UHGV virus genome: UHGV-0209617
Length of the DNA: 64,000 bases
Reading direction: 5' to 3' (one strand)
Source: a virus
The position numbers and the translations under genes were made by a program. Below, in pieces: positions 8,989 through 62,751 of this stretch; the stretch's first letter is position 1, and each line of letters starts with the position of its first letter. The notes beneath the pieces were generated by a model. That model was not told the origin of the DNA and did not search any database. It saw nothing but the letters and a program-made list of their open reading frames with translations.

Positions 8989-9231
8989 ATGAGCGTTGTA
9001 GTAAAAAAAATAGGTGATATGTCTGTAAAAGTAATCAGTGCAGACGATATTGCTTCAATCCGCCGGGAAATAAGTAGTAGAGATATGGAAATGGATAAAA
9101 GAGCTGTTGTAGCCGTAAATTCAGCTATAAATAGGGCGCAGGTATGTAATAAGCCTATAGCTAAATATGATTTGGCAAGTGGAAGGGCATATTTAGAATA
9201 TGCTGATGGGAGTAGGGATTATGTCAACTAA
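8989..9231 (+). CDS. Hypothetical small protein (80 aa) overlapping the start of the zeta-like kinase pseudogene
   Basis: ORF with an extended -10-like TGgTACAAT upstream; its 3' end overlaps the ATG at 9221 by 11 nt. Confidence 0.5.
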   Translation: MSVVVKKIGDMSVKVISADDIASIRREISSRDMEMDKRAVVAVNSAINRAQVCNKPIAKYDLASGRAYLEYADGSRDYVN

Positions 9232-9773
9232 GAAGCAGATGATATTGGTGTTAGTTGGTTCCAATGGCTCTGGAAAAAGTACTATTACCAAATTCTTTGA
9301 TGTTGTTGGCGAATATACTAATGCTGATGATATTGTAGCAGCCACTGGAATGGATAATCTTGCTGCAGCACGAATGGCTGATGAAAAATGTATTCTGCTA
9401 TAAAAGAAAAACGGGATTTTACCTTTGAAACGGTACTATCTTCAGAGTATAAGTTTGATATATTAAATAAGGCTAAAGCAGAGGGTATTTTATTAAGTGT
9501 GTATTTGTATTGACCGTGAATCCCTACATAAATGTAGCTAGAGTGCAGATGCGTGTAGCTAATGGTGGTCATTTTGTGGAAAAAGATAAGATTTTATCAA
9601 GATACTATAAATCATTGACAAATATAAAGAAACTGTTAGAAATATGTGATATTATGCATGTTTATGATAATACCGTTACCCCAACGCGTATCATACGAAA
9701 GCATAAGGATGATATTTCTACTTTTGCTAGTGAAATATGGAGCGAAGAGCAGATTCTAAAACTTATGTATTAA
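9221..9773 (+). pseudogene. Zeta-toxin-like P-loop kinase gene disrupted by at least two frame changes
   Basis: Walker A LVGSNGSGKST in the first segment, ...RDFTFETVLSSEYKFDILNKAKAEGILLSVYLY in a second frame, ...RVQMRVANGGHFVEKDKILSRYY in a third; stops at 9403 and about 9511. Confidence 0.55.
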
Positions 9774-10488: not shown

Positions 10489-10517
10489 TTGCCGTTGTAC
10501 TATTGACTTGCTATAAT
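10489..10517 (+). promoter_or_regulatory. Sigma-A-type promoter candidate (TTGCCG, 17-bp spacer, extended -10 TGcTATAAT)
   Basis: Hexamer spacing and extended -10 read directly; 49 nt upstream of the ATG at 10566. Confidence 0.5.
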
Positions 10518-10565: not shown

Positions 10566-11384
10566 ATGGAAAAGAATCTTGATGAGGCTGTTAAATGGTT
10601 GCGTAAGGCAGCAGAGCTTGGGCATAAGGATGCAATGGTAAAGCTGGGCGAGCTACTCAGTGGTACAGAGGAGCCATTGACAAAACTATTGGAAAAATCA
10701 TATATGGAAGGCTATGCAGATGGCAAAAATGGCAAGGCTAATAAATATTTCAAGGAAGCATATATTAAATCTACTATGGATAGAGCAGGTTTTGTTAATG
10801 TTAAGGTTGGAGATATAATCACATTTGGCAATTATTGGCAGGATAAAGATAAGTCAGCTGGTAAGCAGCCAGTAGAGTGGCAGGTGCTTGATGTCAAGGA
10901 TGGCAAGGCATTAGTTATTAGTAAATATGGTTTAATAAATCATAAATATAATAAAGAATGGACGGATGTTACATGGGAAACATGTACCTTGAGAAAATGG
11001 CTGAATGATACCTTTATTAAGGATATTTTCTCCGCAGAGGAAATGAAGGCTGTTATGTTATCAGATGTTAGTGCAGATAAAAATCCTAATTATAACACAA
11101 ATCAGGGAAATGACACTAAGGATAAATTGTTCCTGCTGAGTATAAAGGAAGTGGAGCAATATTTTGTTAGTGATGAAAAAAGACTGTGTAAGCCAACAGA
11201 ATATGCAGTTAACAACGGAGCTTATGAGAATAACCGTGGGCATAGTTGGTGGTGGCTACGCTCTGCTGGTGGCTATAGTAGCGATGCGGCGTATGTGGTC
11301 AGTTATGGCTGCGTCTACTACAGTGGCCGTAGTGTGTTCAGCGACGATGGTTCTGTGCGCCCAGCTTTTTGGCTAAATCTTTAG
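10566..11384 (+). CDS. Sel1-like repeat plus DUF6273-like domain protein
   Basis: N-terminal DEAVKWLRKAAELGHKDAMVKLGELL is Sel1/TPR-like; C-terminal W-rich block (WQVLDV...WETCTLRKWLN...WWWLRSAGGYS...VRPAFWLNL) is typical of the DUF6273 pattern as I recall it; start chosen at the ATG with a GGAG upstream. Confidence 0.6.
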   Translation: MEKNLDEAVKWLRKAAELGHKDAMVKLGELLSGTEEPLTKLLEKSYMEGYADGKNGKANKYFKEAYIKSTMDRAGFVNVKVGDIITFGNYWQDKDKSAGKQPVEWQVLDVKDGKALVISKYGLINHKYNKEWTDVTWETCTLRKWLNDTFIKDIFSAEEMKAVMLSDVSADKNPNYNTNQGNDTKDKLFLLSIKEVEQYFVSDEKRLCKPTEYAVNNGAYENNRGHSWWWLRSAGGYSSDAAYVVSYGCVYYSGRSVFSDDGSVRPAFWLNL

Positions 11385-11680
11385 TCTAAAATCTTCAAAT
11401 CTATGAATACGATAAGTGAAAAGTAGAAAAATAAAACAGGTAATTTACCTGCGAAGCAGGGGTGAAATTTTTTAGGAGTATAGGCTGTGAAAAAAAGGTT
11501 AGCGAAACTTTTGTAAGCAGATTGCAGAATTTAAGTTTATCAGCCATAGAAAATCTGTATAGAGCCAATGATATATTTGTGCAGCGTGGCAATTTGAGTG
11601 CCTTGGAACTGACAGGCACTTTTAATGATAAATAGTAATGTTAAATAGCTGTATTATAAAGACAGCTAGAAACAATTTTT

Positions 11681-11735
11681 CAGCGGGGTAACATACTCAA
11701 TAGGAAGCAAGAGTATGTTGCTCCGCTGATTTTTT
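11681..11735 (+). terminator. Long hairpin plus T-run (terminator or small-RNA 3' end)
   Basis: CAGCGGGGTAACATACTC / GAGTATGTTGCTCCGCTG, about 15 of 18 bp paired, followed by TTTTTT. Confidence 0.45.
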
Positions 11736-12357
11736 AGTTTAGGTTGAGTATGTAGAACTGCTATTGGCAGGGGTGGGTATGTAGGGACAATGTGGTTCTG
11801 AAATAGTGAACATATCGAAGCTGAAAGGTACGTGGATATTGAGGTTAGGTAGATATGTTCAGTGCGAGCAGGTTGAATAGATATGAAAAGAAAATGCCCC
11901 AGACCGTGGTATTCCACTTCCTACAATAATTCAGTATGGCAGTGCCGTAACCGCTATTCAGCCGTGAAATGCAAGACCATGAATATCTATGACAAGCTGC
12001 TGTTTATGTCCTGCACGATGTGGCAAAGGACATACGGACAGCAATAGTGGAATTCGCAGCAGATGTGGTCAGTGCTGACAGGCTGGCAGCCATTGAACGC
12101 TACATAGAGAACTTTGAAAGCATGAGTGCCTGGAAGATGCTTTCCAATGCAGATGACCTGTAATTCGTGATGAACATGGTTCTGGTCAAAACGGATAGGC
12201 GCATTGAGGTGATATGGTTGGACGGTGGTGTGGATGGATATGAAATTCCGAGGTATACACCGAAGGGGGGATAGAATGATTAGGTGTCTTTTTAGCATTG
12301 TAAAAGTAATTACATTTACAATGCTAAAAAGATGTAGAAAATATTTTGTAATAGGGA

Positions 12358-12386
12358 TTGTAATTACAGCTTAAATATGCTAAAAT
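12358..12386 (+). promoter_or_regulatory. Promoter candidate for the R-M operon (TTGTAA, 17 bp, TAAAAT) overlapped by palindrome TGTAATTACA; second GTAATTAC palindrome at 12306-12313
   Basis: Hexamers and palindromes read directly; the palindrome overlaps the -35. Confidence 0.4.
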
Positions 12387-12631
12387 ATAAGATGAAAGAC
12401 TATATGGAAATGGAGGAACTACAGTTGAGCGAAATGAAAAGAAAAATGCCTATGGAACATTTGAATATTGGTGAGTTCAACCGTGGGCAATCTTCAAAAC
12501 TAATCCGTAACTTGGTGGAAAAAGATAATGCTGCATTTATACAAAAAAATGGGAAGCCAATAGCCGTTGTTATCTCCTATGAACGATACGAGAGACTGCT
12601 TGAGTCTGGCATTGATATCAATGAGTTCTGA
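12377..12631 (+). CDS. Phd/YefM-fold small protein, first gene of the R-M operon (candidate controller); true start may be the in-frame TTG at 12425 or ATG at 12434-12452
   Basis: NIGEFNRGQSSKLIRNLVEKDNAAFIQKNGKPIAVVISYERYERLLE matches the Phd/YefM N-terminal pattern; ends 11 nt before the methyltransferase ORF; no toxin partner follows. Confidence 0.55.
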   Translation: MLKYKMKDYMEMEELQLSEMKRKMPMEHLNIGEFNRGQSSKLIRNLVEKDNAAFIQKNGKPIAVVISYERYERLLESGIDINEF

Positions 12632-12642
12632 GTATTCAAAAC

Positions 12643-14298
12643 ATGATTAAGGAGGTAACGGAGATGGTTGCGAAAAATTATGGTGTTGTTTACACACCGA
12701 ATAGACTGGCTGAGTTCGCAGCAGAACTTTTATATAGAGAGGCAGCAGAAACTAATACAGAAATAAAGTCGGTATTGGATCCTGCGTGTGGCGAATGCGC
12801 ATTGCTATGTGCTGCAAAGAAATATTTGAATGGTAATGTGAAATATTTGGGAATTGATGTCGATAAAGAAGCAATAATGAATGTTGAGGATGATTTTGAA
12901 ATTCTTTATAATGATTCAATTCTTCCGCGAAATGTAAAAAAACAGACGGCAGAATATTGGAAGAGCAAGATGCCAGTAATATCTGCTATAATTGCAAATC
13001 CACCGTGGAGTTCCGAAAAAATATATGTGCGAGAAGAATTGCAGAGTGCCGGTTTCTCGTTGACCACAGGACAATATGATAGCTTTGTGCTATTTATTGA
13101 GTTGGCATATAATCTGCTTGATGATGGAGGATACTTTTCGTTTATTATCCCCGATTCGTTATTTGATGCACAAAACGAAAAACTAAGAAGATTTTTGACT
13201 GAAAAGATGCAAATCAAAGTGATTGCCAGACTTGGAGAGAAGATTTTTGAAGAAGTGAATAGAGCAACTACTGTTATTGTTTGCAGAAAAGAAAAGCCAG
13301 TCAAAGATTCTGTCACCCACTGTTTCAGACTTACTACGGAAGAAAGAAGAAAGTTTTTGAATTCGAATCAGAGTTTGTTAAACTTTTACAACGAAGATGT
13401 GCATGATGTGTTGCAGGGGCGATTTGCTGAAAACGCTGCCTGTAACTTTGACGTTGATACGCGCACTGATGAAGAGGCATTGTTGGCTAAAATTAAGAAG
13501 CAGTCTATAAGTTGGGAGGATATATTCATTTTTGGTCGAGGTGTTGAGATATCCAAAACAGGAAAGGTCGTATTTTGTCCTTCGTGTGGTTATGCCCAAG
13601 GGTATAAAAAATCACAAATGGCTGAAGGAAAAAAAGAATGTACGAACTGTGGCAGTGAGATATCGGTTACTACGGCAAGTGTTCAAAATGTTATTTCACA
13701 AAGTCAAACGCCACAGACTGTTCAGATATATGTTGGAGAGAATGTTCGGAGATATGGAATAACAGGAGAATGCTATATCAAACCCAACATTCCCGGAATC
13801 AATTATAAAAATCGTGCGATGTACAACCCACCAAAACTGTTGGTGAGAAAGACTGGACTTGGAATATATGCATCGATTGATTATACGGGAAGCATGACAA
13901 GTCAGGCTGTATATATTTTGAAATTTAAAAACAGTCAACATAAGGCTCCGTTGGAATATTATCTGGCATTGCTTAACTCACGAGTGGTCTACTATTTTTA
14001 TTTGAAAGTATATGGAGAAAATGAATGGAAGTCCCATCCGTACTTTACGAAACAGATTATTTATTCTCTGCCTATTAGAGAATATGAGGATAGTGAGTTA
14101 GATAAACAGATCATTAAAGTGGCATCGGAATTGGCGCATAAATATGAATATGTCAAGGATGTTCAGCTTGAGAAGTTGGTAATGAAAAAGTATGGTCTGT
14201 CAGAGACCGAAAGCAATATGGTTTATGGTGAGATGAATCGTCTGCCTGACTTGAGTGCGATTAACAATATGAAAGTTGAGGTGGAAGCGAATGTATAG
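12643..14298 (+). CDS. N6-adenine DNA methyltransferase, gamma-class order (motif I then NPPW), with zinc ribbon and C-terminal recognition domain; probable start ATG at 12664
   Basis: VLDPACGECALL (motif I-like), IIANPPWS (motif IV), CPSCG...CTNCG zinc ribbon; AAGGAGGT 8 nt before the ATG at 12664. Confidence 0.85.
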   Translation: MIKEVTEMVAKNYGVVYTPNRLAEFAAELLYREAAETNTEIKSVLDPACGECALLCAAKKYLNGNVKYLGIDVDKEAIMNVEDDFEILYNDSILPRNVKKQTAEYWKSKMPVISAIIANPPWSSEKIYVREELQSAGFSLTTGQYDSFVLFIELAYNLLDDGGYFSFIIPDSLFDAQNEKLRRFLTEKMQIKVIARLGEKIFEEVNRATTVIVCRKEKPVKDSVTHCFRLTTEERRKFLNSNQSLLNFYNEDVHDVLQGRFAENAACNFDVDTRTDEEALLAKIKKQSISWEDIFIFGRGVEISKTGKVVFCPSCGYAQGYKKSQMAEGKKECTNCGSEISVTTASVQNVISQSQTPQTVQIYVGENVRRYGITGECYIKPNIPGINYKNRAMYNPPKLLVRKTGLGIYASIDYTGSMTSQAVYILKFKNSQHKAPLEYYLALLNSRVVYYFYLKVYGENEWKSHPYFTKQIIYSLPIREYEDSELDKQIIKVASELAHKYEYVKDVQLEKLVMKKYGLSETESNMVYGEMNRLPDLSAINNMKVEVEANV

Positions 14299-15349
14299 AT
14301 ATATAGGAAACAAATCAAAGCTGACTCCATACATTCTTGATAGGGTGGAACAGCTTATTGGAAAAACAGGAATTGTTGCTGACATTATGGCTGGAACAGG
14401 AACTGTGGCATTAGAATTGAGAAAAGCAGGTTATTCGGTTATCGCATCTGATGTAATGACCTATTCGTACCATCATTTGATGGTTAATCTTTGCTTAGAT
14501 TCAGCTCCTTCTTTTTCTGGGCTTGTGAATCATGGAGCAATAGGCAAGAATGAGGTGGATGCATATGGTGCAATCCTGACTTATTTAAATTGCATTGAAC
14601 CCAAAGAAGGTTTTTTCTTCAAGGAATTTTCTCCGGGTGGAACACCGCAGAATGGTTGCGACCCGAGAAAATATTTCACTACGGAAAATGCAAAGAAAAT
14701 TGATGCGATTAGAGAAAAAATAAATGAGTGGATTGATAATGGATATGTGAGCAAAGCTGAAGAATCGCTTTTAAAACATACTCTTATTATGGCAGTAAAC
14801 GAGGTTGCCAATATATCTGGAACTTACGGATATTTTTTGGCTGATTTCAAAAAGAATGCCAATGCACAGATTGATTTAAAACCTGTGGAATTTTGTTCTG
14901 TGAATTCAACTGGTCACATGGTAAAATTGGGATTTGCTGAAAATTTAGCTGCAACAATTACAGTTGATTTGTGCTACATCGACCCTCCGTATATGAAGAG
15001 ACAGTATGCTGCGAATTATCATATTCTGGAAACCATTGCACGAGGAGATTTCCCTGATGCTGTTGGTAAAAGTGGCTTGCGTGACTGGTGGGAGCAGCAC
15101 TCTAAATTGTGTACCAAAACACGAGGATTACAATCGTTTGAAAAGATATTAGGTGATATGCATTGCCCGAAATTTCTGATTAGCTACAGTGAGGATGGTT
15201 TGTTTACGCTGGGGCAATTAGAAGAATGTTTTAGCAAGTTTGGAACTGTTGACGTTCAAGAAATTGATTACAATCGATTTAGAAGCAATGATAGCAAGTT
15301 GCCTAAAAAACTGAAGGAATATTTGATTTCTATAGAAAGGCAGGTATAA
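14291..15349 (+). CDS. D12-class (Dam-like, alpha-order) N6-adenine DNA methyltransferase
   Basis: RYIGNKSKL N-terminal motif, ADIMAGTGTV (motif I), CYIDPPYM (motif IV); ATG overlaps the upstream stop (ATGTATAG). Confidence 0.85.
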   Translation: MYRYIGNKSKLTPYILDRVEQLIGKTGIVADIMAGTGTVALELRKAGYSVIASDVMTYSYHHLMVNLCLDSAPSFSGLVNHGAIGKNEVDAYGAILTYLNCIEPKEGFFFKEFSPGGTPQNGCDPRKYFTTENAKKIDAIREKINEWIDNGYVSKAEESLLKHTLIMAVNEVANISGTYGYFLADFKKNANAQIDLKPVEFCSVNSTGHMVKLGFAENLAATITVDLCYIDPPYMKRQYAANYHILETIARGDFPDAVGKSGLRDWWEQHSKLCTKTRGLQSFEKILGDMHCPKFLISYSEDGLFTLGQLEECFSKFGTVDVQEIDYNRFRSNDSKLPKKLKEYLISIERQV

Positions 15350-15353
15350 GTGA

Positions 15354-17024
15354 ATGGAGTGCATTGAAAGAATATTTTACAGAAAGATTAATCCTTCTGA
15401 TTTCAAAAAGTTGTATGATATTGACAAACCAGAAGGTGGCGGTGGTCAGACATACTTGGAAGCCGCTGGTATTTCAAATGAAAAAATCGTTGATTTCCTT
15501 TCCTATGCGGAGGTTACAAACAGTCCTTTGCCAGATGAAACAAGGTCTGTTTATACATTCAATGCCTATGTTTTGGGCGATTCAAAGGGTAAATGTTCGT
15601 TTGTAGAATTTGCACCTCGCAAAGGAAGAAATAACTATCGTATAAGCCGTCAGAACATGAAATATAAACATCCGGCATGGAGTTTGGATAATGGATTTCC
15701 CGAACCATCAAAAGGTGATGATGGCGAATACACATCTGCAGGCGATTTTGTGGGAATCATTGATAATCTTGTTATTCTTATCATAAGAACTACAAATCGG
15801 CGTTATTATGCAGGTTTTGTAAATATAGCGACAATGCCAGAGAACTGGCCACACAATATTGGCTTAGAGGGCATTTTTAGTGGTGAACGCAGAGATGTAC
15901 TAAAAATGGATGCGTATAAACTACAGTTTGTTAATGATGCCTGTAATCCATTCGGTGATTATGTCCCAACAATCGAAGAATGTAATCGAGCGACTACTGG
16001 TTGCAATGTGCTTTTGTACGGAGTTCCCGGAGCAGGAAAGAGTTGGACAATTGAACACGAATATTGTGCCGATGAAGGGTGTATGGAGCGATTGGTTTTC
16101 CATCCGGATTATATGTATTCGGATTTCGTTGGACAAATTTTGCCTGTAGTAAGGGACGATGACAAGGTTCGTTATGAGTTTACGCCGGGTCCGTTTACCA
16201 AATTATTAAAAAAAGCATATTGGAATACAGAACAGTCTTTTTACCTTATAATAGAAGAAATAAATCGTGGTAATGCACCAGCGATATTCGGTGAAATATT
16301 TCAGCTTTTGGATAGAAAAGATGAAGACGAAATAGATGAAAATAGGGAGATTCTCTACAAAAAAGGCACAAGTGAGTATGGAATAACAAATGCCAATATT
16401 GCACGAATCGTTTATGGCGATGAAAACCATAAGGTTCGAATTCCTGCAAATATGTCTATTTTGGGTACAATGAATACTTCTGACCAAAATGTTTTTACAT
16501 TAGACACAGCATTTCAGAGAAGATGGATTATGAGAATGATTCCGAATTCATTTGATAACCATAAGTTCGCAGACAAGAAGATTTTGGATACTGATATTTC
16601 CTGGAGACAGTTCTGTGAAGCAATTAATGAGGAAATTTTGCGTAGAAACAACATCACATCTTCTGAGGATAAGCGACTTGGGGCATATTTTATCTCGGCT
16701 TCGGATTTGGAGATGAAACCAATCACAGACGGGATGAGCGAAAAAGAAAAAATCCAAGTGGAGCATAGCAACAGCAGATTTGCAGAAAAAGTATTGAAAT
16801 ATTTATGGGATGATGCTTTCAAATTTTCCCATCAAGATACATTTAACACAAGACAGTTTGGTAGTCTTGAAAAAGTTATCGAAGGCTTTATGAATCCTGC
16901 CAAGCCTAAAAATGAGCGTTTTCGTGTATTCAATGAGAACCTTCGTAAAATGATTTTGGATGGAGTAACAGCAGAATCAAACGAGGTTTCTGATGATGAC
17001 AGCGAAGGCTCACAGGAATCTTAA
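15354..17024 (+). CDS. McrB-like AAA+ GTPase restriction subunit with an N-terminal domain of about 200 aa that I cannot assign
   Basis: LLYGVPGAGKSW (Walker A), LIIEEINRGNAPAIFGEIFQLLDR (McrB-type IDEINRAN-like motif), ILGTMNTSDQN (NTxD-type motif). Confidence 0.85.
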   Translation: MECIERIFYRKINPSDFKKLYDIDKPEGGGGQTYLEAAGISNEKIVDFLSYAEVTNSPLPDETRSVYTFNAYVLGDSKGKCSFVEFAPRKGRNNYRISRQNMKYKHPAWSLDNGFPEPSKGDDGEYTSAGDFVGIIDNLVILIIRTTNRRYYAGFVNIATMPENWPHNIGLEGIFSGERRDVLKMDAYKLQFVNDACNPFGDYVPTIEECNRATTGCNVLLYGVPGAGKSWTIEHEYCADEGCMERLVFHPDYMYSDFVGQILPVVRDDDKVRYEFTPGPFTKLLKKAYWNTEQSFYLIIEEINRGNAPAIFGEIFQLLDRKDEDEIDENREILYKKGTSEYGITNANIARIVYGDENHKVRIPANMSILGTMNTSDQNVFTLDTAFQRRWIMRMIPNSFDNHKFADKKILDTDISWRQFCEAINEEILRRNNITSSEDKRLGAYFISASDLEMKPITDGMSEKEKIQVEHSNSRFAEKVLKYLWDDAFKFSHQDTFNTRQFGSLEKVIEGFMNPAKPKNERFRVFNENLRKMILDGVTAESNEVSDDDSEGSQES

Positions 17025-17040
17025 AGCGAGGTGAGCGACA

Positions 17041-18321
17041 TTGGATTTAGGCTTAAACTTAAAAGTTAAATGTCATGTGAATAAAAATGGTGATGGCGAT
17101 AGGTTTGTCGGGATTAAGGCTGATGCTAATCAAGCAATGGTCTATTTTCCAATGGGGTATCGCCTGCCAGACAATGAAGAAGATATTAGGGATGATATTC
17201 TAAAATTGATTTCTGTATTAGCTGAGTTTACGGATTCAAAAGACAAGGTATTGGCTATGCAGAAATTTGAAGCACCACAGTCTGTGAATTTTCCAATCAA
17301 TGCCTATATGAATATTATCCGATACTATTTGGAACAACGTTCATATTACACAGAAAAGGATCCTATTCTAAAGACGAGTGACAGAGGAAAAATCGACTTT
17401 GCAGCATCTTTGCGTAGAAATGTTAGCTTTTTTCAAGAAGATGGAACTCCGTTTTTTGATAAATATACAGTAAAAGGGTCAACTCCTAATGATAAAAATT
17501 TAATAACTATGATTCACAAATACTGTGTGCATGAAAGTTTTGCTCAGATGGGTTGGCTGTTTATGCCGGATGTCCCACAAGATCCACATATTGAACGAAA
17601 CATTCCGCTTTTCCTCAGTGTACTGAAGAAAAAATTGGCAGTCACGCATCTTGAAAAGGATATTCTGCTATTTGAAGCAATGATTTCTATGCTGGAATAT
17701 TTGGATGAGAAAAGTGACGATAAACAATACTATTTTGGAACAGATAGATTTGAATATGTGTGGGAAAAACTGATAGATGCAGTGTTTGGCATAAAAGAAA
17801 AGAATGATTATTTTCCACGAACCTCTTGGAAACTAAACTATGGTGACCAACGAAGAAATTATGCATTAGAGCCGGACACCATAATGCTTTGTAATGGAAA
17901 AATCTATGTCATTGATGCAAAGTATTATAGATACGGTGTAACCGGTACACCTTCGCATTTGCCGGAATCATCATCTATCAACAAGCAGATTACATATGGT
18001 GAGTACATATATAATCATAAGAAATTTAAGGATGTATATGGTGATGATGTTCCTGTGTATAACGCATTCCTTATGCCGTATAACAAACAGGATAATCCAT
18101 TTCATATCAATGAGTATTTCGCCAATATTGGTGAGGCTGATAGTGACTGGAAATATGGCAATCATAATTATGAACGGGTGCAAGGAATTGTAGTTGATAT
18201 TCGTTTCTTGATGAACAATTACTATGGTTCGCACAAGAGTAAAATTATTAAGATGGCGAAGCTCATCGAGGAAGCCCTGCAGGAAAATGCAGATACGCTT
18301 CCAGAAGAAAAGACTGAATAA
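17041..18321 (+). CDS. McrC-like PD-(D/E)xK nuclease subunit (TTG start)
   Basis: ALEPDTIMLCNGKIYVIDAKYY gives PD...D-x-K; position immediately after the McrB-like gene; GAGGTGA 7 nt before the TTG. Confidence 0.75.
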   Translation: MDLGLNLKVKCHVNKNGDGDRFVGIKADANQAMVYFPMGYRLPDNEEDIRDDILKLISVLAEFTDSKDKVLAMQKFEAPQSVNFPINAYMNIIRYYLEQRSYYTEKDPILKTSDRGKIDFAASLRRNVSFFQEDGTPFFDKYTVKGSTPNDKNLITMIHKYCVHESFAQMGWLFMPDVPQDPHIERNIPLFLSVLKKKLAVTHLEKDILLFEAMISMLEYLDEKSDDKQYYFGTDRFEYVWEKLIDAVFGIKEKNDYFPRTSWKLNYGDQRRNYALEPDTIMLCNGKIYVIDAKYYRYGVTGTPSHLPESSSINKQITYGEYIYNHKKFKDVYGDDVPVYNAFLMPYNKQDNPFHINEYFANIGEADSDWKYGNHNYERVQGIVVDIRFLMNNYYGSHKSKIIKMAKLIEEALQENADTLPEEKTE

Positions 18322-18362
18322 AAAATCCGCAAGCAGTGATTATGCTGTTTGCGGATTTTTTA
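18321..18362. terminator. Bidirectional rho-independent terminator between the R-M operon and the convergent CGNR gene
   Basis: A-run, ATCCGCAAGCAG / CTGTTTGCGGAT stem, then TTTTTT. Confidence 0.65.
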
Positions 18363-19544
18363 TTTGCCCTTTTGAACTTTGATGCGATGGGAACGTTGAT
18401 TATTTGCGTTTCTACAGTTACTGCAACAATATTTATTTCTACTATTGGATGTCTTTACTAAGAAATATTTATGGCAAGAAGGATTGGCACACTTTCTATA
18501 TATTTCAGATCCGGGTTTCATGTAGAAAATAGAAAAATATAATGCAGAAAGCAATGATGGTGCCTTCCACGACGGTTCCAGTGAATTGGGACTGTAGAAA
18601 GGTTTTATACTTCTGGTATTATGATTTATTTCCCCACTTAAAACGAGTCGTGCGATAAGAGTAGCAGCCTCTTTTAATGGACTGTTAAATTTGCTGAAAT
18701 CTGGACTACTATAGTATTCAATGCCGCCCTCGAAAGTTACAGCTTTTATTACACCAACAGAATGCATATAGTGAAACAGGAATTCAACCATTAGTCGGAG
18801 CTTCTTGGATTGAATATTGTTATTCTTGTAAGCAATAGTAACCTGGCGATACAGCGTATCATTAATTCCAGGATAATCGTATGTAAATGTTTCTCCGTTT
18901 GAAATATCATCATATTCATCAGCATTTAATTCATATGAAGGAGCATAAATCATGTCTTTTACGGTAATAGATTCTGTTTCAGAGGATTGCTGTAGTGAAT
19001 CGATAGAGGCTTGATTTCTGATGCTATCATGAAATGGATGCCGATAGGTTGAATAAGTAATTCGTGCAGTGCCATTAAGCGTAACTTGTGTCCCAAGAAG
19101 CAAATACAAAGTTAAATGTAGAATCTGTTCATAATCAAGTGATGGTTTTTCCACTGCGGCCATAAGGAGAACTGTAGCCTTTATTCGATTCAAGACTTCT
19201 ACAAGCGCTACTATATCAATTTCCGTTCCTTCGGGCGAAATAGGAAGTAGATAACCATGTTCCTCGAAAAAACCAAGGACCTTTTTTACATTGGTTGCCG
19301 GAAGCGATATCAGAGAACCGAGAACATTTTTATTTTGAAGTGAACCGTGTGGAGTCGTTAAACATAAACCTCGGCTTCCGCTAAAGGCATAATTTATAAT
19401 TTCATCATTCACGGGATAGACTGTTAATATTTTATGCGCCTGCCCGTCCGTCTTTAAGACTTCTTCTATTCTAAATGTACATTTTTTGCAACTCAAAGAA
19501 AAATAATCGTTGCTAAGATTGAAAAAATTGTCTAACTCAGTCAT
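18360..19544 (-). CDS. Protein with C-terminal CGNR-type zinc finger; N-terminal ~340 aa unassigned
   Basis: C-terminus CANPSCHKYFLVKTSNSRNKYCCSNCRNANNQRSHRIK fits the CGNR zinc-finger pattern (C-x2-C ... C-x2-C-R). Confidence 0.65.
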   Translation of the reverse strand: MTELDNFFNLSNDYFSLSCKKCTFRIEEVLKTDGQAHKILTVYPVNDEIINYAFSGSRGLCLTTPHGSLQNKNVLGSLISLPATNVKKVLGFFEEHGYLLPISPEGTEIDIVALVEVLNRIKATVLLMAAVEKPSLDYEQILHLTLYLLLGTQVTLNGTARITYSTYRHPFHDSIRNQASIDSLQQSSETESITVKDMIYAPSYELNADEYDDISNGETFTYDYPGINDTLYRQVTIAYKNNNIQSKKLRLMVEFLFHYMHSVGVIKAVTFEGGIEYYSSPDFSKFNSPLKEAATLIARLVLSGEINHNTRSIKPFYSPNSLEPSWKAPSLLSALYFSIFYMKPGSEIYRKCANPSCHKYFLVKTSNSRNKYCCSNCRNANNQRSHRIKVQKGK

Positions 19545-19978
19545 AAAAAACTACTCCATATTTCCTTGCCCCTCGTAGAAGGGTCTTTTTTTATGTCGAA
19601 AAGTAAGTGATTACATAAGTAATAATGTAATTATAACGCTTACTATTGCTTGTTTCAAGCTAGTATAGTAATGAAATACACAGAAAGTAAGTGATTATAT
19701 CAGAAATTTACTTACTATACTGAAATTCTTATACTTAAAGACAGTGAAGGACAACCAAACTTTATATACAGCGGAGGTGTTTTTCACATCCCTGTTTCAA
19801 TGTTCATCGCCTGATCAGCGATGCCCAGAGCGGAGAAACGGACACAAGTAAATATCAGTCAACCCACTGGGACGGTTGGCCAGCTAAGAAATGAGGATTT
19901 CATTCTTATGGCCAATTATTATGGGAAGTTCAGTGTGGGTCCTCATTTCGGTTTTCAGACCGAAGGAGGGTCTACACG

Positions 19979-20488
19979 ATGGACAAATTTGAAAATCTAC
20001 AGACAAGCAACGAGAAGCAGTATTACATTCCTTTGGAAGTAACCGCAGAAACTATCAGAGATTTTGGCATCAACCCTAAAGATGTGGTATGGACGAGAAT
20101 CGGGAACAAGCCTAAAAAGGTTGTTATGATTCCCGTAACCGAGGAGCAGTACAAAACATTTATGCGTCCTCTGTGGCGTGAGGACAAGCGTCAGCAAAGA
20201 CAGGAGCCGATGGCATCGCTGGATAAGATGTACGAAAAAACCGAGTACGAAGCGGCTGATACCGACTCTGACCTTGAAGCGAATATTATGAAGAAAATGC
20301 TGATTGATGAGCTTCACAAGGCACTGGATGAACTGGAAGAAATCGACCGCACCATTATGAAGATGTACAGCAATAACCATAGCGAAGCCGAAATCGGACA
20401 GACTATCGGTATGAGCCAGAAGGGTGTTAATAAACGTAAGCACAAGGTGCTGCTGAAACTTAACACCAGATTGAAAGACTTCAGATAA
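19979..20488 (+). CDS. Sigma-70 region-4-like HTH protein (putative phage transcription factor)
   Basis: C-terminal EIGQTIGMSQKGVNKRKHKVLLKL HTH; GAAGGAGGG SD. Confidence 0.65.
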   Translation: MDKFENLQTSNEKQYYIPLEVTAETIRDFGINPKDVVWTRIGNKPKKVVMIPVTEEQYKTFMRPLWREDKRQQRQEPMASLDKMYEKTEYEAADTDSDLEANIMKKMLIDELHKALDELEEIDRTIMKMYSNNHSEAEIGQTIGMSQKGVNKRKHKVLLKLNTRLKDFR

Positions 20489-20502
20489 GGGATAATACCC
20501 TG

Positions 20503-20541
20503 CCTGCTCTGCCACAGCATTATCCGGTGGAGCAGGTTTTT
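20503..20541 (+). terminator. Rho-independent terminator candidate
   Basis: CCTGCTC ... GAGCAGG stem then TTTTT, 15 nt after the stop. Confidence 0.5.
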
Positions 20542-20562
20542 ATATTGTTTTCAAAAAATAGT

Positions 20563-20629
20563 GGTTCTTAAAACAACCGTATATGTCCTTTCACTCTCAG
20601 AGGGGCAAACAAGGCACCTCGGAAAGGAC
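20563..20629 (+). promoter_or_regulatory. Conserved leader element copy 1 (GGTTCTTAAAAC ... GTCCTTTCACTCTCAGAGGGG ... GAAAGGAC)
   Basis: Same blocks recur at 25507-25571; TCCTTTC and GAAAGGA can pair as a stem. Confidence 0.45.
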
Positions 20630-20807
20630 GGTGTCAAACGATGACAACCAGATGTAGAACAGGCACGAGGGGCTGCGGCAGTCAGGAACTCGACCGAGAG
20701 TTATCTGATGCGCTTATCGCAATCAGTGTCGTGTCAAAAAGAATCGCTGACCGTATTACAGCAGTCAGCGGCAGAGAAAAAAAAGAATATGGAAGGAGGA
20801 AGCCTAA

Positions 20808-21170
20808 ATGGGAAAGATGAACGAGTTGTCTATGCTCACAGAGGAACTTCGCAAATGTGGTGAAACGCTTATCAGCATTTCAGAGGAATTGGCGGGTATG
20901 TTCAGCGGCTCTGCGGAAGAAAAGCAGCCTGTCAAAAAGAGTGCTGCTAAGAATAAAGCCGCCGAGGCGACGAAGCCAGAAGCGCCGAAGAAAAAGGCTC
21001 TCACGCTGGAAGATGTCCGTGCCGTGTGTGCAGACAAATCCCGCAGTGGTTTTACGGCAGAAGTCAAAGCAATCCTGAATAAGCACGGTGTGGAAAAGCT
21101 GTCGGAGGTTAATCCAGCAGAATATAAGGCACTGCTTGCTGAAGTGGAGGTGCTGGGAAATGCCGGATAA
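20808..21170 (+). CDS. Hypothetical phage protein (120 aa, lysine- and alanine-rich middle)
   Basis: ORF with GAAGGAGG SD. Confidence 0.55.
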   Translation: MGKMNELSMLTEELRKCGETLISISEELAGMFSGSAEEKQPVKKSAAKNKAAEATKPEAPKKKALTLEDVRAVCADKSRSGFTAEVKAILNKHGVEKLSEVNPAEYKALLAEVEVLGNAG

Positions 21171-22332
21171 ACAGAAGGTGAATTGCACCGCAGGTGCAAG
21201 AGAGGCTGGCCTGGGCCACGCAGTTTTATCAGCATCATCCAGTCACCGCTGGCTTGCCTGCCCTCCTTCGGCTTTGCTTTGTGCGAAAGTCGGAGATACC
21301 ATAAGCGAGTTTGCTATGCAGGGTACCGATGCCCACAGCCTTTGCGAACATAAGGTGAAAACAGCATTGGGGCAGCAGTCGAAAGACCCTACAGAGAATT
21401 TAACGTTCTTTGACGAGGAGATGGCAGACTGTTCCGATATGTATGCTCAGTATGTGATGGAGCAGCTTGGGGCGGCAAAGGAAAAGTGCAAAGACCCAAT
21501 CGTTCTGATTGAACAGCGTCTTGATTTTTCCAAGTGGGTACCGCAGGGGTTCGGCACCGGGGACTGTGTCATTGTAGCTGATGAAACGCTGACAATCATT
21601 GACATGAAATACGGAGTCGGGATTCTTGTTTACGCAGAGAAAAATCCGCAAATGATGTGTTACGCATTGGGAGCTTTGGCGCTGTTTGATGGGATTTACG
21701 ATATAACACAGGTATCAATGACAATCTTCCAGCCGCGAAGAGACAATGTCAGCACATACACCATTTCTAAAGTAGAACTTCTGAAATGGGCGGATGAGGT
21801 GCTTGCTCCGACCGCACAGCTTGCAGCCAAGGGAGAAGGAGAATACAAGGCCGGAGACCACTGCCAGTTCTGCAAGGTCAAAGCCAAGTGTCGCAAAAGA
21901 GCCGAATACAACCTGGAACTTGCCCGTTATGATTTTGAAATGCCTTCCACCCTTGAAGACGATGAGATTGAGGCCATTTTAGAAAAAGCAGACGCGCTGG
22001 TATCCTGGGCGGGCGATGTCAAGGAATATGCATTGCAGCAGGCAGTCAGCGGCAAGCAGTGGAAAGACTGGAAGATTGTCGAAGGACGCTCCAACAGGAA
22101 GTATGTAAATGAAACAGCCGTGGCAGATACGGTCAAGGATGCAGGTTATGACCCGTTTGAACATAAGGTTCTGGGGATTACCGCAATGACCAAACTACTC
22201 GGCAAGGCAAAATTTGAAGAATTGCTCTCCGGGTTTATTGAAAAAACACAGGGCAAGCCAACATTGGTACCTATGTCGGACAAACGTCCGGCAATGAATA
22301 CAGCAGCTAACGATTTTAAGGAGGACAACTAA
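21160..22332 (+). CDS. DUF2800-type PD-(D/E)xK nuclease (Cas4/RecB-like, with Cys cluster)
   Basis: SASSSHRWLACP N-terminal motif, IIDMKYG, C-terminal CQFCKVKAKC cysteine cluster. Confidence 0.75.
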   Translation: MPDKQKVNCTAGAREAGLGHAVLSASSSHRWLACPPSALLCAKVGDTISEFAMQGTDAHSLCEHKVKTALGQQSKDPTENLTFFDEEMADCSDMYAQYVMEQLGAAKEKCKDPIVLIEQRLDFSKWVPQGFGTGDCVIVADETLTIIDMKYGVGILVYAEKNPQMMCYALGALALFDGIYDITQVSMTIFQPRRDNVSTYTISKVELLKWADEVLAPTAQLAAKGEGEYKAGDHCQFCKVKAKCRKRAEYNLELARYDFEMPSTLEDDEIEAILEKADALVSWAGDVKEYALQQAVSGKQWKDWKIVEGRSNRKYVNETAVADTVKDAGYDPFEHKVLGITAMTKLLGKAKFEELLSGFIEKTQGKPTLVPMSDKRPAMNTAANDFKEDN

Positions 22333-22333
22333 T

Positions 22334-22900
22334 ATGTCAAAGAATTACACAAATCCTACCAAGGTAATCACAGGAGTCAATACTCGTTGGTCTTACGCAA
22401 ATGTGTGGGATCCGAAATCCATCAACGGCGGTGCACCGAAGTACAGCGTGAGCCTTATCATTCCGAAGTCTGATACCGCAACGGTAAACAAGATAAAGGC
22501 AGCTATCCAGTCTGCTTATGAAGAGGGCGAATCCAAGCTGAAGGGCAATGGCAAGAGTGTACCTGCTCTTTCCATTATTAAGACCCCTCTTCGTGATGGT
22601 GATTTGGAGCGTCCGGATGATGTAGCGTATGCAGGCTGTTACTTCGTCAATGCCAACTCTGCAACTGCTCCCGGTATTGTTGACGCAGAACGTCAGCCGA
22701 TTCTTGACCGCAGTGAGGTATACAGCGGTGTGTATGGCCGTGCATCCATCAACTTCTATGCCTTCAATTCCAATGGGAATAAGGGTATCGCCTGCGGTCT
22801 TAATAACCTGCAGAAGATCCGTGATGGTGAGCCTCTTGGTGGAAAGAGCCGTGCCGAGGACGATTTTGCTACCGATGCAGATGAAGATTTTCTCGCATAA
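22334..22900 (+). CDS. DUF2815-type phage protein (SSB-like, usually partnered with DUF2800 and DNA polymerase)
   Basis: Size, position and sequence character fit my recollection of this family; AAGGAGGA SD. Confidence 0.6.
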   Translation: MSKNYTNPTKVITGVNTRWSYANVWDPKSINGGAPKYSVSLIIPKSDTATVNKIKAAIQSAYEEGESKLKGNGKSVPALSIIKTPLRDGDLERPDDVAYAGCYFVNANSATAPGIVDAERQPILDRSEVYSGVYGRASINFYAFNSNGNKGIACGLNNLQKIRDGEPLGGKSRAEDDFATDADEDFLA

Positions 22901-23127
22901 GGAGGACGGCTTATTATGACAACCATTCAGAGTATGATGCTGTGTGTTTCGGTGCCGTGATGGGAACTTTCATTGCAGATGTGGGGTTTCTCATCAAGTG
23001 TGTCATTGACAAGCACAAGGAGAAAAAGAGTAAGAAAAAAGAAGAGTCTGCTGATAAGGCAGAGTAAATGACAGCGGGCGGCGTAGGTGTATTCTTCGCC
23101 GCCTTGCTTATATGAAGGAGTGACAAT

Positions 23128-25157: not shown

Positions 25158-25506
25158 TGAAAGTCCAATCGGTTTGAGCATCTGTGAGAGGCTTGATTGG
25201 TTCTGTCAAATCCCAAAATGCAAGGAGAGCCGGATTTCTCTGACTCTCTCAAGTATGTATCCTTGAATACATACCCCAATTAGTGTCCATATTATACAGC
25301 TTCCGTTCGAAATATGCAAGACCTAAATGAAATTTTTCAAGGCAGACATTCGTGCTGATAAATCCGGATGAATGACGATTGCTGCTACTGCGGGATTGAC
25401 GGATATTTTATAGTCATCTGTGATTTTCTCAAATTCTCGAATGAAGGCCTTTATTTCGGTTTTGGCATATGTAGCAATTTTAAGAGCAAAAAAAGATTAA
25501 AAATAC

Positions 25507-38400: not shown

Positions 38401-38562
38401 CAAAGAAAAGCCGGAAGGACCTCGGAAGGGGGCCTTTTGGTCGTGGTAGCATAAATAGACTTTACAAGTTCCCAACTACACCATGTTAAAGTATCGGCTC
38501 CGATGGGAGCTTCATATCTAACCGCCTCTGGGCGGATTTTTTTATGTCTGGAAGTGAGAGAA

Positions 38563-40170
38563 ATGGCAATAAGGAAACTGAAAAAATACATACCGACAAA
38601 ATTCATGTCTGAAGACAGCCATTATGATAAGGGGGCGGCTGACTATGCCGTAGCATTTATTGAAGCCTTATGCCATACCAAGGGAACTTGGGCAGGTAAG
38701 CCTTTTGAGCTAATCGATTGGCAGGAACAGATTATTCGTGACCTTTTTGGTATCCTAAAGCCAAATGGATATAGGCAGTTTAATACAGCCTATGTTGAAA
38801 TACCCAAAAAGCAAGGAAAATCTGAGCTGGCAGCGGCCGTTGCAATCCTTTTAACCTGCGGTGATGGTGAGGAACGTGCGGAGGTTTATGGCTGTGCTGC
38901 AGACCGGCAACAGGCATCCATTGTTTTTGATGTTGCTGCGGATATGGTCAGTATGTGTCCTGCTTTAGCCAAGCGCGTAAAAATACAGAAATCTATGAAG
39001 CGCATGATATATCTTCCTACGAACAGCTTCTACCAGGTGCTTTCGGCAGAGGCCTATTCAAAGCATGGCTTCAATATCCATGGTGTTATCTTTGATGAGC
39101 TTCATACCCAGCCAGACCGCAAGCTGTATGATGTAATGACCAAAGGCTCCGGCGATGCAAGAATGCAGCCGATGTATTTTAATATAACTACAGCAGGGAC
39201 GGATACTCATTCCATATGCTACGAAATACATCAGAAGGCAAAGGATATTATTGCTGGGCGGAAGATTGATACAACCTTCTATCCTGTGATTTATGGTGCG
39301 GATGAAGGAGAGGATTGGACTTCTCCAGAAGTGTGGAAGAAGGCAAATCCGTCTCTTGGCATTACTGTTGGCATGGATAAGGTTGAAGTTGCTTGTGAGT
39401 CTGCAAGGCAGAATCCAGGGGAAGAAAATGCTTTTCGCCAACTTCGTCTTAACCAATGGGTAAAGCAGTCGGTTCGTTGGATGCCTATGGAAAAATGGGA
39501 TGAGTGCAGCTTCAAAGTTAACCCTGATGACCTAGAAGGACGCGTATGCTATGGAGGTCTTGACCTATCCAGCACCACAGATATAACAGCCTTTGTATTG
39601 GTGTTTCCTCCGGAGGATGAGGAGGATAAATATCATATACTGCCTTATTTCTGGATACCGGAGGAAACAATGGATCTTCGTGTAAAGCGTGACCATGTGC
39701 CCTATGATATCTGGCATAAGCAGGGATTCCTTGAAACCACCGAAGGCAATGTAGTCCACTATGGCTACATCGAGAAATTCATTGAATCCCTCGGTGAAAA
39801 ATATAATATCCGTGAGATTGCCTTTGATAGATGGGGTGCGACACAGATGGTGCAGAATCTTGAGGGCATGGGATTTACTGTTGTTCCCTTTGGACAAGGT
39901 TACAAGGATATGAGTCCGCCAACCAAGGAGCTGATGAAGCTGACCCTTGAAAAGAAACTGGCTCATGGCGGTCATCCAGTTCTGAGGTGGATGGCAGACA
40001 ATATCTTCATCCGAAGGGATCCCGCTGGGAACATCAAGGCAGACAAAGAAAAGTCCACAGAGAAGATTGACGGTGTCATAGCCACCATAATGGGGCTGGA
40101 CAGAGCAATTCGCTGTGGATTGAATTCTGGAGATTCCGTTTATGATGGGCGAGGAATTTTGTTAATATAA
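38563..40170 (+). CDS. Phage terminase large subunit (intact)
   Basis: 536-aa ORF; nuclease-domain C-terminus matches the fragments at 1-267 and 986-1203; preceded by CCGCC/GGCGG hairpin plus T-run at 38523-38543. Confidence 0.9.
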   Translation: MAIRKLKKYIPTKFMSEDSHYDKGAADYAVAFIEALCHTKGTWAGKPFELIDWQEQIIRDLFGILKPNGYRQFNTAYVEIPKKQGKSELAAAVAILLTCGDGEERAEVYGCAADRQQASIVFDVAADMVSMCPALAKRVKIQKSMKRMIYLPTNSFYQVLSAEAYSKHGFNIHGVIFDELHTQPDRKLYDVMTKGSGDARMQPMYFNITTAGTDTHSICYEIHQKAKDIIAGRKIDTTFYPVIYGADEGEDWTSPEVWKKANPSLGITVGMDKVEVACESARQNPGEENAFRQLRLNQWVKQSVRWMPMEKWDECSFKVNPDDLEGRVCYGGLDLSSTTDITAFVLVFPPEDEEDKYHILPYFWIPEETMDLRVKRDHVPYDIWHKQGFLETTEGNVVHYGYIEKFIESLGEKYNIREIAFDRWGATQMVQNLEGMGFTVVPFGQGYKDMSPPTKELMKLTLEKKLAHGGHPVLRWMADNIFIRRDPAGNIKADKEKSTEKIDGVIATIMGLDRAIRCGLNSGDSVYDGRGILLI

Positions 40171-40178
40171 ATTATAGG

Positions 40179-40207
40179 TTGAATATATCCTAGAGATGGT
40201 ATATAAT
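40179..40207 (+). promoter_or_regulatory. Promoter candidate for Phd-Doc (TTGAAT, 17 bp, TATAAT)
   Basis: Hexamers and spacing read directly. Confidence 0.5.
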
Positions 40208-40230
40208 AGCCATGAAAGGAGATGATACCT

Positions 40231-40473
40231 ATGATGGTTGATACTAATAATCTTGTTTCAATAACTGAGGCAAACCAGAATTTTTCAAAGGTCGCTCGTA
40301 TGGTAGATGAGTCAGGTTCTGTTGTAATCCTAAAAAATAATGTACCTAAATATTTAGTAGTTAATTTTGATGTGGCTGATAGCGTGGATTATACTTCAGA
40401 TGAAGAGCTGCTCATGGTATCAGATAAATTTATGAAGAAAAATAAAAAGGCGTATGAGGTATTGGCAAAATGA
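40231..40473 (+). CDS. phd: Phd/YefM-family antitoxin
   Basis: VSITEANQNFSKVARMVDESGSVVILKNNVPKYLVV; stop overlaps the Doc start (ATGA). Confidence 0.8.
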   Translation: MMVDTNNLVSITEANQNFSKVARMVDESGSVVILKNNVPKYLVVNFDVADSVDYTSDEELLMVSDKFMKKNKKAYEVLAK

Positions 40474-40844
40474 AGCGAATATCTAAACGTCAGGTATTAT
40501 TGCTGCATAATAAGCTGATAGAGGAAAGTGGCGGCTCTGATGGTATCAGGGAAGATGGACTCTTGGAATCAGCTTTGAATGCGCCTTACCATGAGTTTGC
40601 AGGTTTTTCAAACTATCCCACGATAGAAGAAAAAGCTGCCAGGCTCGGTTATGGTATAATCAAGAACCATCCATTTGTTGATGGGAATAAAAGAATTGGT
40701 ACCCATATTATGCTTCTGCTTTTGTATATCAATGGTGTTGAGTTGGTATATGAACAGGAGGAGCTGATAGACATAATTCTACAAGTTGCATCAGGACAAG
40801 CTGATTATGAAGAGTTATATGCTTGGGTTTTAGATCATGAATAA
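40470..40844 (+). CDS. doc: Doc (death-on-curing) Fic-family toxin
   Basis: Fic motif HPFVDGNKRIG. Confidence 0.85.
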   Translation: MKRISKRQVLLLHNKLIEESGGSDGIREDGLLESALNAPYHEFAGFSNYPTIEEKAARLGYGIIKNHPFVDGNKRIGTHIMLLLLYINGVELVYEQEELIDIILQVASGQADYEELYAWVLDHE

Positions 40845-40889
40845 CAAGGGTGTTGCCGTAATGGTAACGCCTATTTTTATGGAGGAAAA

Positions 40890-60203: not shown

Positions 60204-60228
60204 ATAAGCACGGTTGGAGGTGATTGCC

Positions 60229-60810
60229 ATGAATGACATTGAAAAGCTTGTTGATGAGTCAGGAATGATTACAACTAGAGATATAGTGAAAAATAATCAG
60301 TCAAAAGTAGAATTTTACAATTACCTGAGAAAAAATGATTTTGAACAAGTATCGCGTGGTATATATGCTTCTAAGGATGCGTGGGTAGACCCATTATTGA
60401 TTGCGCATATGAGATGTCCTAAAGCGGTGATCTCTCATGATGTGGCACTTCATTATTATGGCTTGGTTGATAGAGAGCCTTCAGCTCCAACGCTTACTAT
60501 TTATTCTGGATACAACACAAGCAGGTTAAAAGAAGCAGGGTACAAGGTGTTTTTCGTGAAGAAGGAATACCTTGATGCTGGCAAAGAAGAGGTTGTAAAT
60601 TTTGATGGCAACATCATTCCTATGTATAACCTTGAAAGAACGATGTGTGACCTTGTCAGAAACAGAAGCAGCTTTGAGATTCAAGATTTCAATGCAGCTA
60701 TAAAAGCGTATGCCAGAAAAAAGGAAAAGAATCTTACAAGGCTATTTGAATATGCGAAAATGCTTAGGGTGGAAAAATTGATGCGGTCATATATGGAGGT
60801 GCTTTTGTAA
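60229..60810 (+). CDS. abiEi: AbiEi-family antitoxin / transcriptional regulator
   Basis: N-terminal DNA-binding-like region ending ...VSRGIYA; paired with a DUF1814-type nucleotidyltransferase; GGAGGTGA SD. Confidence 0.75.
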   Translation: MNDIEKLVDESGMITTRDIVKNNQSKVEFYNYLRKNDFEQVSRGIYASKDAWVDPLLIAHMRCPKAVISHDVALHYYGLVDREPSAPTLTIYSGYNTSRLKEAGYKVFFVKKEYLDAGKEEVVNFDGNIIPMYNLERTMCDLVRNRSSFEIQDFNAAIKAYARKKEKNLTRLFEYAKMLRVEKLMRSYMEVLL

Positions 60811-62526: not shown

Positions 62527-62751
62527 ATGCAGAAATCAGATCTTGGGGAACGGGAATACCTTAGCAAGAAGTATACTGCCGTCTTCTTCGGACTCAGTCC
62601 CAGGCGGCTTGAGCGATTCCTCAAAGCAGATGACTATGATTTTGTTGTGTATTATAAGAAAAGAACACTGATATTAAGGGAGGCCTTCAACAGATATCTC
62701 TGGAGGAATCCTGATGTAAGGGAGATGTTGAAACGTGGCAAGACGAGGTGA
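62527..62751 (+). CDS. Second excisionase-like HTH protein
   Basis: YLSKKYTAVFFGLSPRRLERFLK; start chosen at the ATG 8 nt after GGAGG. Confidence 0.55.
   Translation: MQKSDLGEREYLSKKYTAVFFGLSPRRLERFLKADDYDFVVYYKKRTLILREAFNRYLWRNPDVREMLKRGKTR

Follow-up and report, generated by a model that had tools for sequence, protein, structure and literature searches.

A terminator-like hairpin of a decayed diversity-generating retroelement beside the broken 3' end of a prophage serine integrase gene

Introduction

Large serine recombinases carry the domains Resolvase (PF00239), Recombinase (PF07508) and Zn_ribbon_recom (PF13408), and are exemplified by the integrases of phiC31, Bxb1, TP901-1 and A118 and by TnpX/TndX. 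Diversity-generating retroelements (DGRs) have as their prototype the mtd-avd-TR-brt cassette of Bordetella phage BPP-1. DUF6273 is a published DGR target domain, with the variable region at its C-terminus (PMC11792537; PMC10743442).

The locus described here lies in a 64-kb stretch of viral DNA, referred to below as the window, and all of its parts belong to kinds that are already well known: a serine integrase pseudogene, an intrinsic-type terminator, a decayed DUF6273 DGR and a LlaJI-type operon. The integrase part has its homologues among 470–472-aa large serine recombinases, over the second half of their zinc ribbon and their C-terminal tail, and an intact gene of this type occupies the corresponding end of a prophage of the same kind in the related locus L029. 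The window copy is not a working member of the group; it is without codons 1–336, including those for the catalytic serine domain, and the rest is frameshifted, lacks 6 further codons and contains a premature stop. Likeness to the gut-prophage DGRs with DUF6273 targets (PMC11792537; PMC10743442) extends to the target domain, its C-terminal variable region and the avd gene that follows, whereas the window has only a broken avd, and a hairpin unit occupies the place of the missing template repeat and reverse transcriptase; this cassette is predicted to be no longer able to diversify. The hairpin itself shares with Rho-independent terminators a G+C-containing stem-loop, a T6 run, co-orientation with the upstream genes and greater stability on the + strand. 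It is unusual for an intrinsic terminator in its long 19-bp stem and 12-nt loop, both longer than is customary, and in having been missed by a terminator scan. The prophage to the right resembles defective (‘grounded’) prophages, from which it shows no unusual difference: it looks otherwise intact, with terminase, tail, lysin and replication genes, while its integrase is reduced to a fragment, and it is predicted to be unable to excise.

We read the interval as the terminator of a decayed DGR cassette beside the broken 3' end of a prophage serine integrase gene, and put the probability of this reading as a whole at about 85%.

Results

Table 1. Positions in the window of the features discussed in the text.
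Feature	Position	Strand	Details
DUF6273-domain gene, former DGR target	10566–11384	+	Pfam DUF6273 E = 2.6e-30; ATG 10566 as in the L014 gene call
DGR-style variable region of the DUF6273 gene	about 11237–11370	+	Template-repeat match and substitution pattern
avd remnant (DGR accessory gene)	11487–11641	+	GTG start 11487; AGGAG ribosome-binding site 11474–11478
Hairpin, intrinsic-terminator-like	11680–11735	+	19-bp stem, 12-nt loop, T6 run
Hairpin 5' arm	11680–11698	+	TCAGCGGGGTAACATACTC
Hairpin loop	11699–11710		12 nt
Hairpin 3' arm	11711–11729	+	GAGTATGTTGCTCCGCTGA
T6 run after the hairpin stem	11730–11735	+	
Non-coding G-rich spacer	11736–11896	+	Kept with L014 up to 11871; stops in all frames
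Large serine recombinase (prophage integrase) pseudogene, 3' remnant	11898–12274	+	Residues 337–467 of 471 aa, and stop
Frameshift	12003–12005	+	TTT versus TTTT in all homologues, 1-nt deletion; tblastn frame switch at 12005
18-nt in-frame deletion, 6 codons (ARKKIV)	12019–12027	+	Between short direct repeats TGTGGCAAG and TGTGGCAAAG; DNA alignment
Premature TAA stop	12161–12163	+	Homologues TCA or TTA (Ser or Leu); tblastn stop symbol versus Ser
Near-perfect 46-nt palindrome	12287–12332	either	Self-match 95.7%; fold −23.8 kcal/mol, z −7.9
Phd/YefM-like gene heading the restriction-modification operon	12377–12631		
N6 methyltransferase	12643–14298		
D12 methyltransferase	14276–15349		
AAA_5	15354–17024		
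RE_LlaJI	17041–18321		

A stable, strand-specific hairpin on the left flank

A sequence-only reading of this DNA had pointed to a hairpin with a T-run near 11681–11735, some 300 bp past the nearest upstream gene. The hairpin was borne out and the distance, measured from the stop codon (11382–11384) of the DUF6273 gene to the start of the hairpin, is 296 nt. Its 19 stem pairs comprise nine G-C, eight A-U and two G.U pairs (Table 1). The + strand RNA has a folding energy of −32.8 kcal/mol, as compared with −12.3 ± 2.4 kcal/mol for 200 shuffled sequences, none of which folded as well (z −8.56). The − strand reaches only −24.2 kcal/mol, 8.6 kcal/mol less, because both G.U pairs turn into C/A mismatches, and it has no T-run behind the stem. 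By this strand asymmetry and the position of the T-run, the hairpin reads as an RNA signal of the + strand. It was absent from the output of a simple consensus terminator scan, whose loop limit of 8 nt it exceeds.

The features of an intrinsic terminator are otherwise present: a stable stem-loop with a U-run immediately behind it on the + strand, lying downstream of a co-oriented unit, the DUF6273 gene and avd remnant, ahead of which there is a promoter-like site (10489–10517). We consider it likely that the hairpin is the predicted intrinsic terminator of the DUF6273–avd transcript. It would end the + strand transcript of the target gene and avd remnant in a Rho-independent manner, insulating the DNA downstream.

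An exact-pattern scan of metagenome contigs recovered one further copy of the hairpin, in L014, which by blastn is 88.5% identical to the window over 11646–11871. Scans of the same kind for the hairpin or for conserved motifs of the unit found none in genome contigs and none in viral contigs, and blastn of 11400–12650 against phage and plasmid collections gave no match. Both arms of the L014 hairpin are identical to those of the window, with one change in the loop and a T5 run, so that this single independent copy offers no covariation. In L014, the 3' flank of a DUF6273 gene is followed directly by the hairpin unit and then by a second DUF6273 gene, and recombinase sequence occurs nowhere in the contig; the hairpin unit therefore belongs to the left (DGR) flank. 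The hairpin and the start-less coding fragments behind it, which had been presented together, are thus both real, but do not form one feature.

Other relatives (L023, L024–L028 and L032) share the target gene and the avd remnant with the window and then diverge, each having its own strong hairpin and T-run ∼80–100 nt 3' of the avd remnant. At the equivalent position, the hairpin of L023 folds at −27.1 kcal/mol (z −7.3) and that of L024 at −25.7 kcal/mol (z −5.3); the hairpins of L023, L024 and L032 differ in sequence from that of the window, with a similar stem base (TCCGAG...CTCGGA). Behind the relatives' hairpins come GGTTGAC-type repeats and then differing restriction-modification cargo (SinI-like, NgoBV-like or C5 methyltransferase). 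That differing hairpins of like architecture recur at this position is the strongest indication available that the locus needs a terminator at this point, although it is not covariation. The idea that the hairpin unit is a conserved part of intact DGRs found no support, there being no homologue in L015–L022.

The sequence-only reading had allowed that the hairpin could be the 3' end of a small RNA. Either a discrete small RNA ending at the hairpin would start within the avd remnant, or the spacer behind the hairpin would constitute a non-coding RNA of its own. This proposal would accord with the great stability and + strand specificity of the hairpin, with the better-than-shuffled folding of the 361 nt that end with and contain it (z −4.9), with a weak promoter-like site at 11609–11636, and with the retention of the 11646–11871 unit in L014. 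However, the DNA 5' of the hairpin is demonstrably a broken avd gene, the fold of the downstream spacer is unremarkable and equal on the two strands (z −2.5 and −2.6), the two known copies are without compensatory changes, and the motif scans of genome and viral collections were empty. Rfam, run over the whole window at gathering scores, placed no family over 11300–12700; at E≤10 the same region gave chance-level hairpin matches only, to plant and plastid families, the best being Plastid-psbA-2 with 30.1 bits as compared with a gathering threshold of 55.8. The small-RNA proposal thus gained no positive support, and we regard it as improbable.

That the hairpin is instead a recombination or retrohoming signal, either an attachment-site inverted repeat of the serine integrase or a DGR cruciform near the variable region, would suit a long inverted repeat located at a mobile-element junction, but is very unlikely: L014 carries the hairpin without recombinase sequence, nothing similar lies 5' of the intact integrase in L029, the G.U pairs favour a one-strand RNA hairpin over a DNA cruciform, the hairpin is 296 nt past the end of the variable-region gene and beyond the avd remnant whereas a DGR hairpin adjoins the variable region, and no template repeat or reverse transcriptase is left in the window to use it.

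The left flank is the tail of a decayed DGR

Judged by homology, the left flank is the tail of a decayed DGR. Within the DUF6273 gene, 11237–11326 matches the template repeat of an intact relative (L019, 6417–6506) at 69%, and the substitutions seen among five related DUF6273 copies are concentrated in the final ∼150 nt, in between blocks that do not vary. An exact look-up of the 293-aa DUF6273 ORF returned no record, probably because the true start is ATG 10566.

The avd gene is broken. By alignment it has an internal 81-nt deletion with a frameshift after GTG 11487, and the 3' part of the gene is lost. NCBIfam DivGenRetAVD is matched by the L014 copy (E = 4e-6) and by that copy extended with window sequence (E = 2e-7), and Pfam bAvd is matched with E = 2e-5; the 499 homologues are typically 129 aa long and 70–86% identical. 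In tblastn with the Avd of L019, residues 35–66 (of 129) fall on 11507–11602, and this segment and the frame-shifted start region are all that is recognisable. Pipelines call the pseudogene as a 57-aa ORF (11462–11635), a small ORF that should be annotated as an avd pseudogene. A small hairpin (GTGCCT...AGGCAC, then TTTT) is present at 11599–11626, where the match of the avd remnant to the less-decayed L032 copy ends (11609).

In intact relatives DUF6273 is followed by bAvd, a template-repeat gap and RVT_1. A sensitive blastn of 11100–11400 against the whole 64-kb window found no second copy that would be the template repeat, and tblastn with the reverse transcriptases (RVT_1) of L019 and L015 gave no meaningful match in the window.

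At the left end of the window, positions 1–2338 hold fragments of terminase-large-subunit and portal genes with 65–82% protein identity to the intact genes at 38455–42164. A second prophage of this family, heavily decayed, probably lies to the left of the better-preserved one and has the DGR remnant as its end. At 9200–9773, a P-loop ATPase-like gene is split over three frames; it has weak Pfam matches to AAA_21/ABC_tran and ABC-3C CTD1, and is probably a pseudogene.

The start-less frames are the 3' end of a serine recombinase gene

The G+C content is 0.44–0.485 over 11900–12299 as compared with about 0.30–0.39 on either side. The rise in G+C that had been described behind the hairpin is thus borne out, but the first 160 nt there (11736–11896) are non-coding, the gene remnant beginning at 11897/11898. 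The open frames without start codons are there as described: the quoted one, ...AAVYVLHDVAKDIRTAIVEFAADVVSADRLAAIERYIENFESMSAWKMLSNADDL, ends at TAA 12161–12163, and the next stretch in the same frame, FVMNMVLVKTDRRIEVIWLDGGVDGYEIPRYTPKGG, ends at TAG 12272–12274. Searches of Pfam and PHROGs with the raw fragments gave no significant family, so that their identity came only via homologues and the context of these.

The 56-aa frame has six relatives in a large protein collection, all of them only close ones, which read past the window TAA into ...FVIDRVLVKPDR.IEVLWLDGSVD.YEIPRYTPKGG, the window's next open frame; P0002, P0003 and P0005 are among the proteins that continue through this position. 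The two window frames are therefore one gene split by a stop codon. Directly 5' of the matching fragment, contigs L003–L005 have a Recombinase-domain ORF, and L007 has a 390-aa ORF of N-terminal resolvase-type sequence that ends where the fragment begins. An exhaustive search with a C-terminal profile matched 37 proteins among 1.84 billion representatives; in full-length P0024 (472 aa; Resolvase, Recombinase and Zn_ribbon_recom) it is residues 390–468 that match. A query with the L007 N-terminal sequence led to the intact 470–471-aa proteins P0164, P0166 and P0167, the last a recombinase family protein of a Ruminococcus flavefaciens MAG; the nearest named homologues are from Ruminococcus MAGs.

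When P0164, P0166, P0167 and P0024 were used in tblastn, residues 337–372 fell on 11898–12005 in frame 3 with 94% identity (PRPWYSTSYNNSVWQCRNRYSAVKCKTMNIYDKLLF), and residues 373–467 on 12005–12271 in frame 2 with 73–80% identity, a 6-residue gap and a stop symbol. The protein similarity that had been proposed as a check of 11740–12290 is thus found, to residues 337–467 of serine recombinases, and the suggestion that the frames are the remains of a deleted gene is upheld by these homologues: the remnant is, by homology, what is left of a large serine recombinase gene, its final ∼28%, the catalytic part being lost. What is present corresponds to the zinc ribbon (PF13408), of which only the second half is kept (PRPWYSTSYNNSVWQCRNRYSAVKCKT..., residues 337–372), and to the C-terminal tail. 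Residues 1–336, with the resolvase catalytic domain (PF00239), are absent from the window by tblastn with the L007 ORF, P0164, P0166, P0167 and P0024, as is the Recombinase domain (PF07508) found in the homologues P0024 and P0166. An uninterrupted frame with a start codon is precluded by the 5' truncation, the 1-nt frameshift and the TAA. Relocation of the 5' part to another place within the 64-kb window was considered and rejected, tblastn having found no other part; it could lie outside the window, behind an insertion of >12 kb, rather than having been deleted.

Comparison of the remnant with its homologues gave dN/dS values of 0.19–0.30, as against 0.14–0.18 for pairs of intact genes. The changes private to the window are eight non-synonymous and four synonymous ones (small counts) and the nonsense codon. 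The only slightly raised dN/dS and the private changes fit recent inactivation, without proving neutrality.

It might be argued that the start-less frames are functional, as a stand-alone C-terminal domain or as mini-proteins of 47 aa (start GTG 12020) and 35 aa (start GTG 12167) kept under selection, for example as a regulator of restriction-modification. The dN/dS values could be taken in this sense, as could the shortness (≤200 aa) of 33 of the 37 proteins matching the C-terminal profile, the prediction of the 47-aa ORF by gene callers in five metagenome contigs, and the keeping of the 3' end in three lineages with different lesions, namely the window (cut at 11897), L001 (cut corresponding to L007:677) and L007. 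However, divergence that took place before the gene was inactivated accounts for the low dN/dS, and the private changes, eight non-synonymous to four synonymous with a nonsense codon, lean the other way, although the counts are small. Many of the short matches probably come from short contigs; the called starts vary from contig to contig (MAKDIR, MEFAAD, MAIVEF, MVSADR), leaving no conserved start codon; the TAA and the frameshift are private to the window lineage; and intact 471-aa genes carry this tail at 80–94% identity. We give the idea of functional frames very little credence, and regard the serine recombinase remnant as ordinary pseudogene decay rather than a new feature. The short integrase-tail proteins (33 of the 37 proteins P0007–P0043) may be contig-end fragments or widespread remnants of the family.

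The spacer and the seam

Between the hairpin and the recombinase remnant, the spacer contains diverged GGTTGRGTATGTAG-like copies at about 11742, 11775, 11843 and 11872. It may be the leftover promoter/operator region of a lost downstream gene. As a candidate DGR template repeat it was rejected, since it has no similarity to the variable region. Motifs of the GGTTGRGTATGTAG or GGTTGACAGG type are found in 2–4 copies 3' of terminator hairpins in the window (11742–11893), L014, L023 and L032, and these repeats may be promoter −35 elements or operator repeats.

The seam between the left flank and the recombinase remnant falls within 11872–11897, and DNA homology to L007, L001 and L029 begins abruptly at 11896–11898. 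The region has no repeats within the window above chance except the palindrome at 12287–12332. The interval lies across the join of two decayed mobile-element modules that are unrelated to each other.

The prophage that owned the integrase

In L029, the intact recombinase gene is followed by HTH_17, two methyltransferases, AAA_5, RE_LlaJI, a 395-aa minus-strand gene, a sigma-like gene, DUF2800 and an Enc34-type ssDNA-binding gene. The order after the remnant in the window is the same: 3' of RE_LlaJI lie a 394-aa minus-strand gene, a sigma-like gene, DUF2800, the ssDNA-binding gene and DNA polymerase A. L029 matches the window at 11896–12271, 15993–18005 and 19730–22926 (88% over the last of these), and has ahead of the intact gene an hsdM fragment and a small SHOCT-like ORF, neither of them present in the window. 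This collinearity indicates that the recombinase was the integrase at the left end of a DUF2800-type prophage, which here extends to about 62 kb and includes, further right, terminase, tail genes, a GH25 lysin and AbiEi/AbiEii. The LlaJI-type restriction-modification operon is, on the same comparison, cargo just inside the integrase. The minus-strand gene at 18360–19544 was tried as a tyrosine integrase and rejected, having no Pfam match.

The palindrome separates the remnant from the Phd/YefM-like gene. It is conserved in L007 and shares bases with the −35 hexamer of a promoter-like site at 12315–12342. Its 5' side adjoins a T-run and its 3' side an A-run, so that neither strand forms a terminator; it may be an operator.

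Just past the right end of the prophage, a Tn916-type tyrosine integrase gene (Integrase_DNA and Phage_integrase; 62735–64000) runs off the window. It possibly belongs to a neighbouring element. The AbiEi/AbiEii toxin-antitoxin pair occupies 60214–61664, at the right end of the prophage.

Discussion

We infer that a single deletion joined the terminal part of a decayed prophage directly to the interior of its neighbour's integrase gene. This deletion would have taken away the first 336 codons, which specify the resolvase catalytic domain, the recombinase domain and one half of the zinc ribbon, and presumably the attachment-site junction as well. The 1-nt frameshift, the 18-nt deletion and the nonsense codon would then have been acquired afterwards. 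On this gene content, the prophage's own serine integrase should no longer be able to excise it. The statement is confined to that enzyme, as the Tn916-type integrase might mobilise something here.

Apart from correct annotation, little depends on this locus. The ORFs of 47 and 35 aa called by pipelines should be annotated as a single serine-integrase pseudogene, and the predicted non-excision of the prophage (about 11.9 to 62 kb) by its own serine integrase bears on attempts at induction. The locus also illustrates how a DGR and an integrase decay at a prophage border while the adjoining restriction-modification cargo is exchanged.

Differing restriction-modification cargo is found just inside the integrase or just past the avd remnant in the window (12377–18321), L001, L023, L024, L029 and L032, examples being LlaJI-type operons, in which the methyltransferases come in three different sets, and SinI-like, NgoBV-like and IceA-like systems. 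This position looks like an exchange hotspot. The 3' end of the integrase gene is kept beside interchangeable restriction-modification cargo in the window, the L001 group and L007, and in several relatives a module of a strong terminator and GGTTG-type repeats lies 5' of the cargo. It is a doubtful conjecture that these parts are kept non-randomly, either because the integrase 3' end and the terminator-repeat module form a portable expression or insulation unit for defence cargo, or because deletions into the methyltransferase promoter are lethal through restriction-modification addiction.

Two RNAs elsewhere in the window exceed their Rfam gathering scores: a DUF2800 RNA (81.8 bits) at 19792–19945 on the + strand, 5' of the sigma-like/DUF2800 module, and an abiF RNA (43.3 bits) at 25164–25200 on the − strand.
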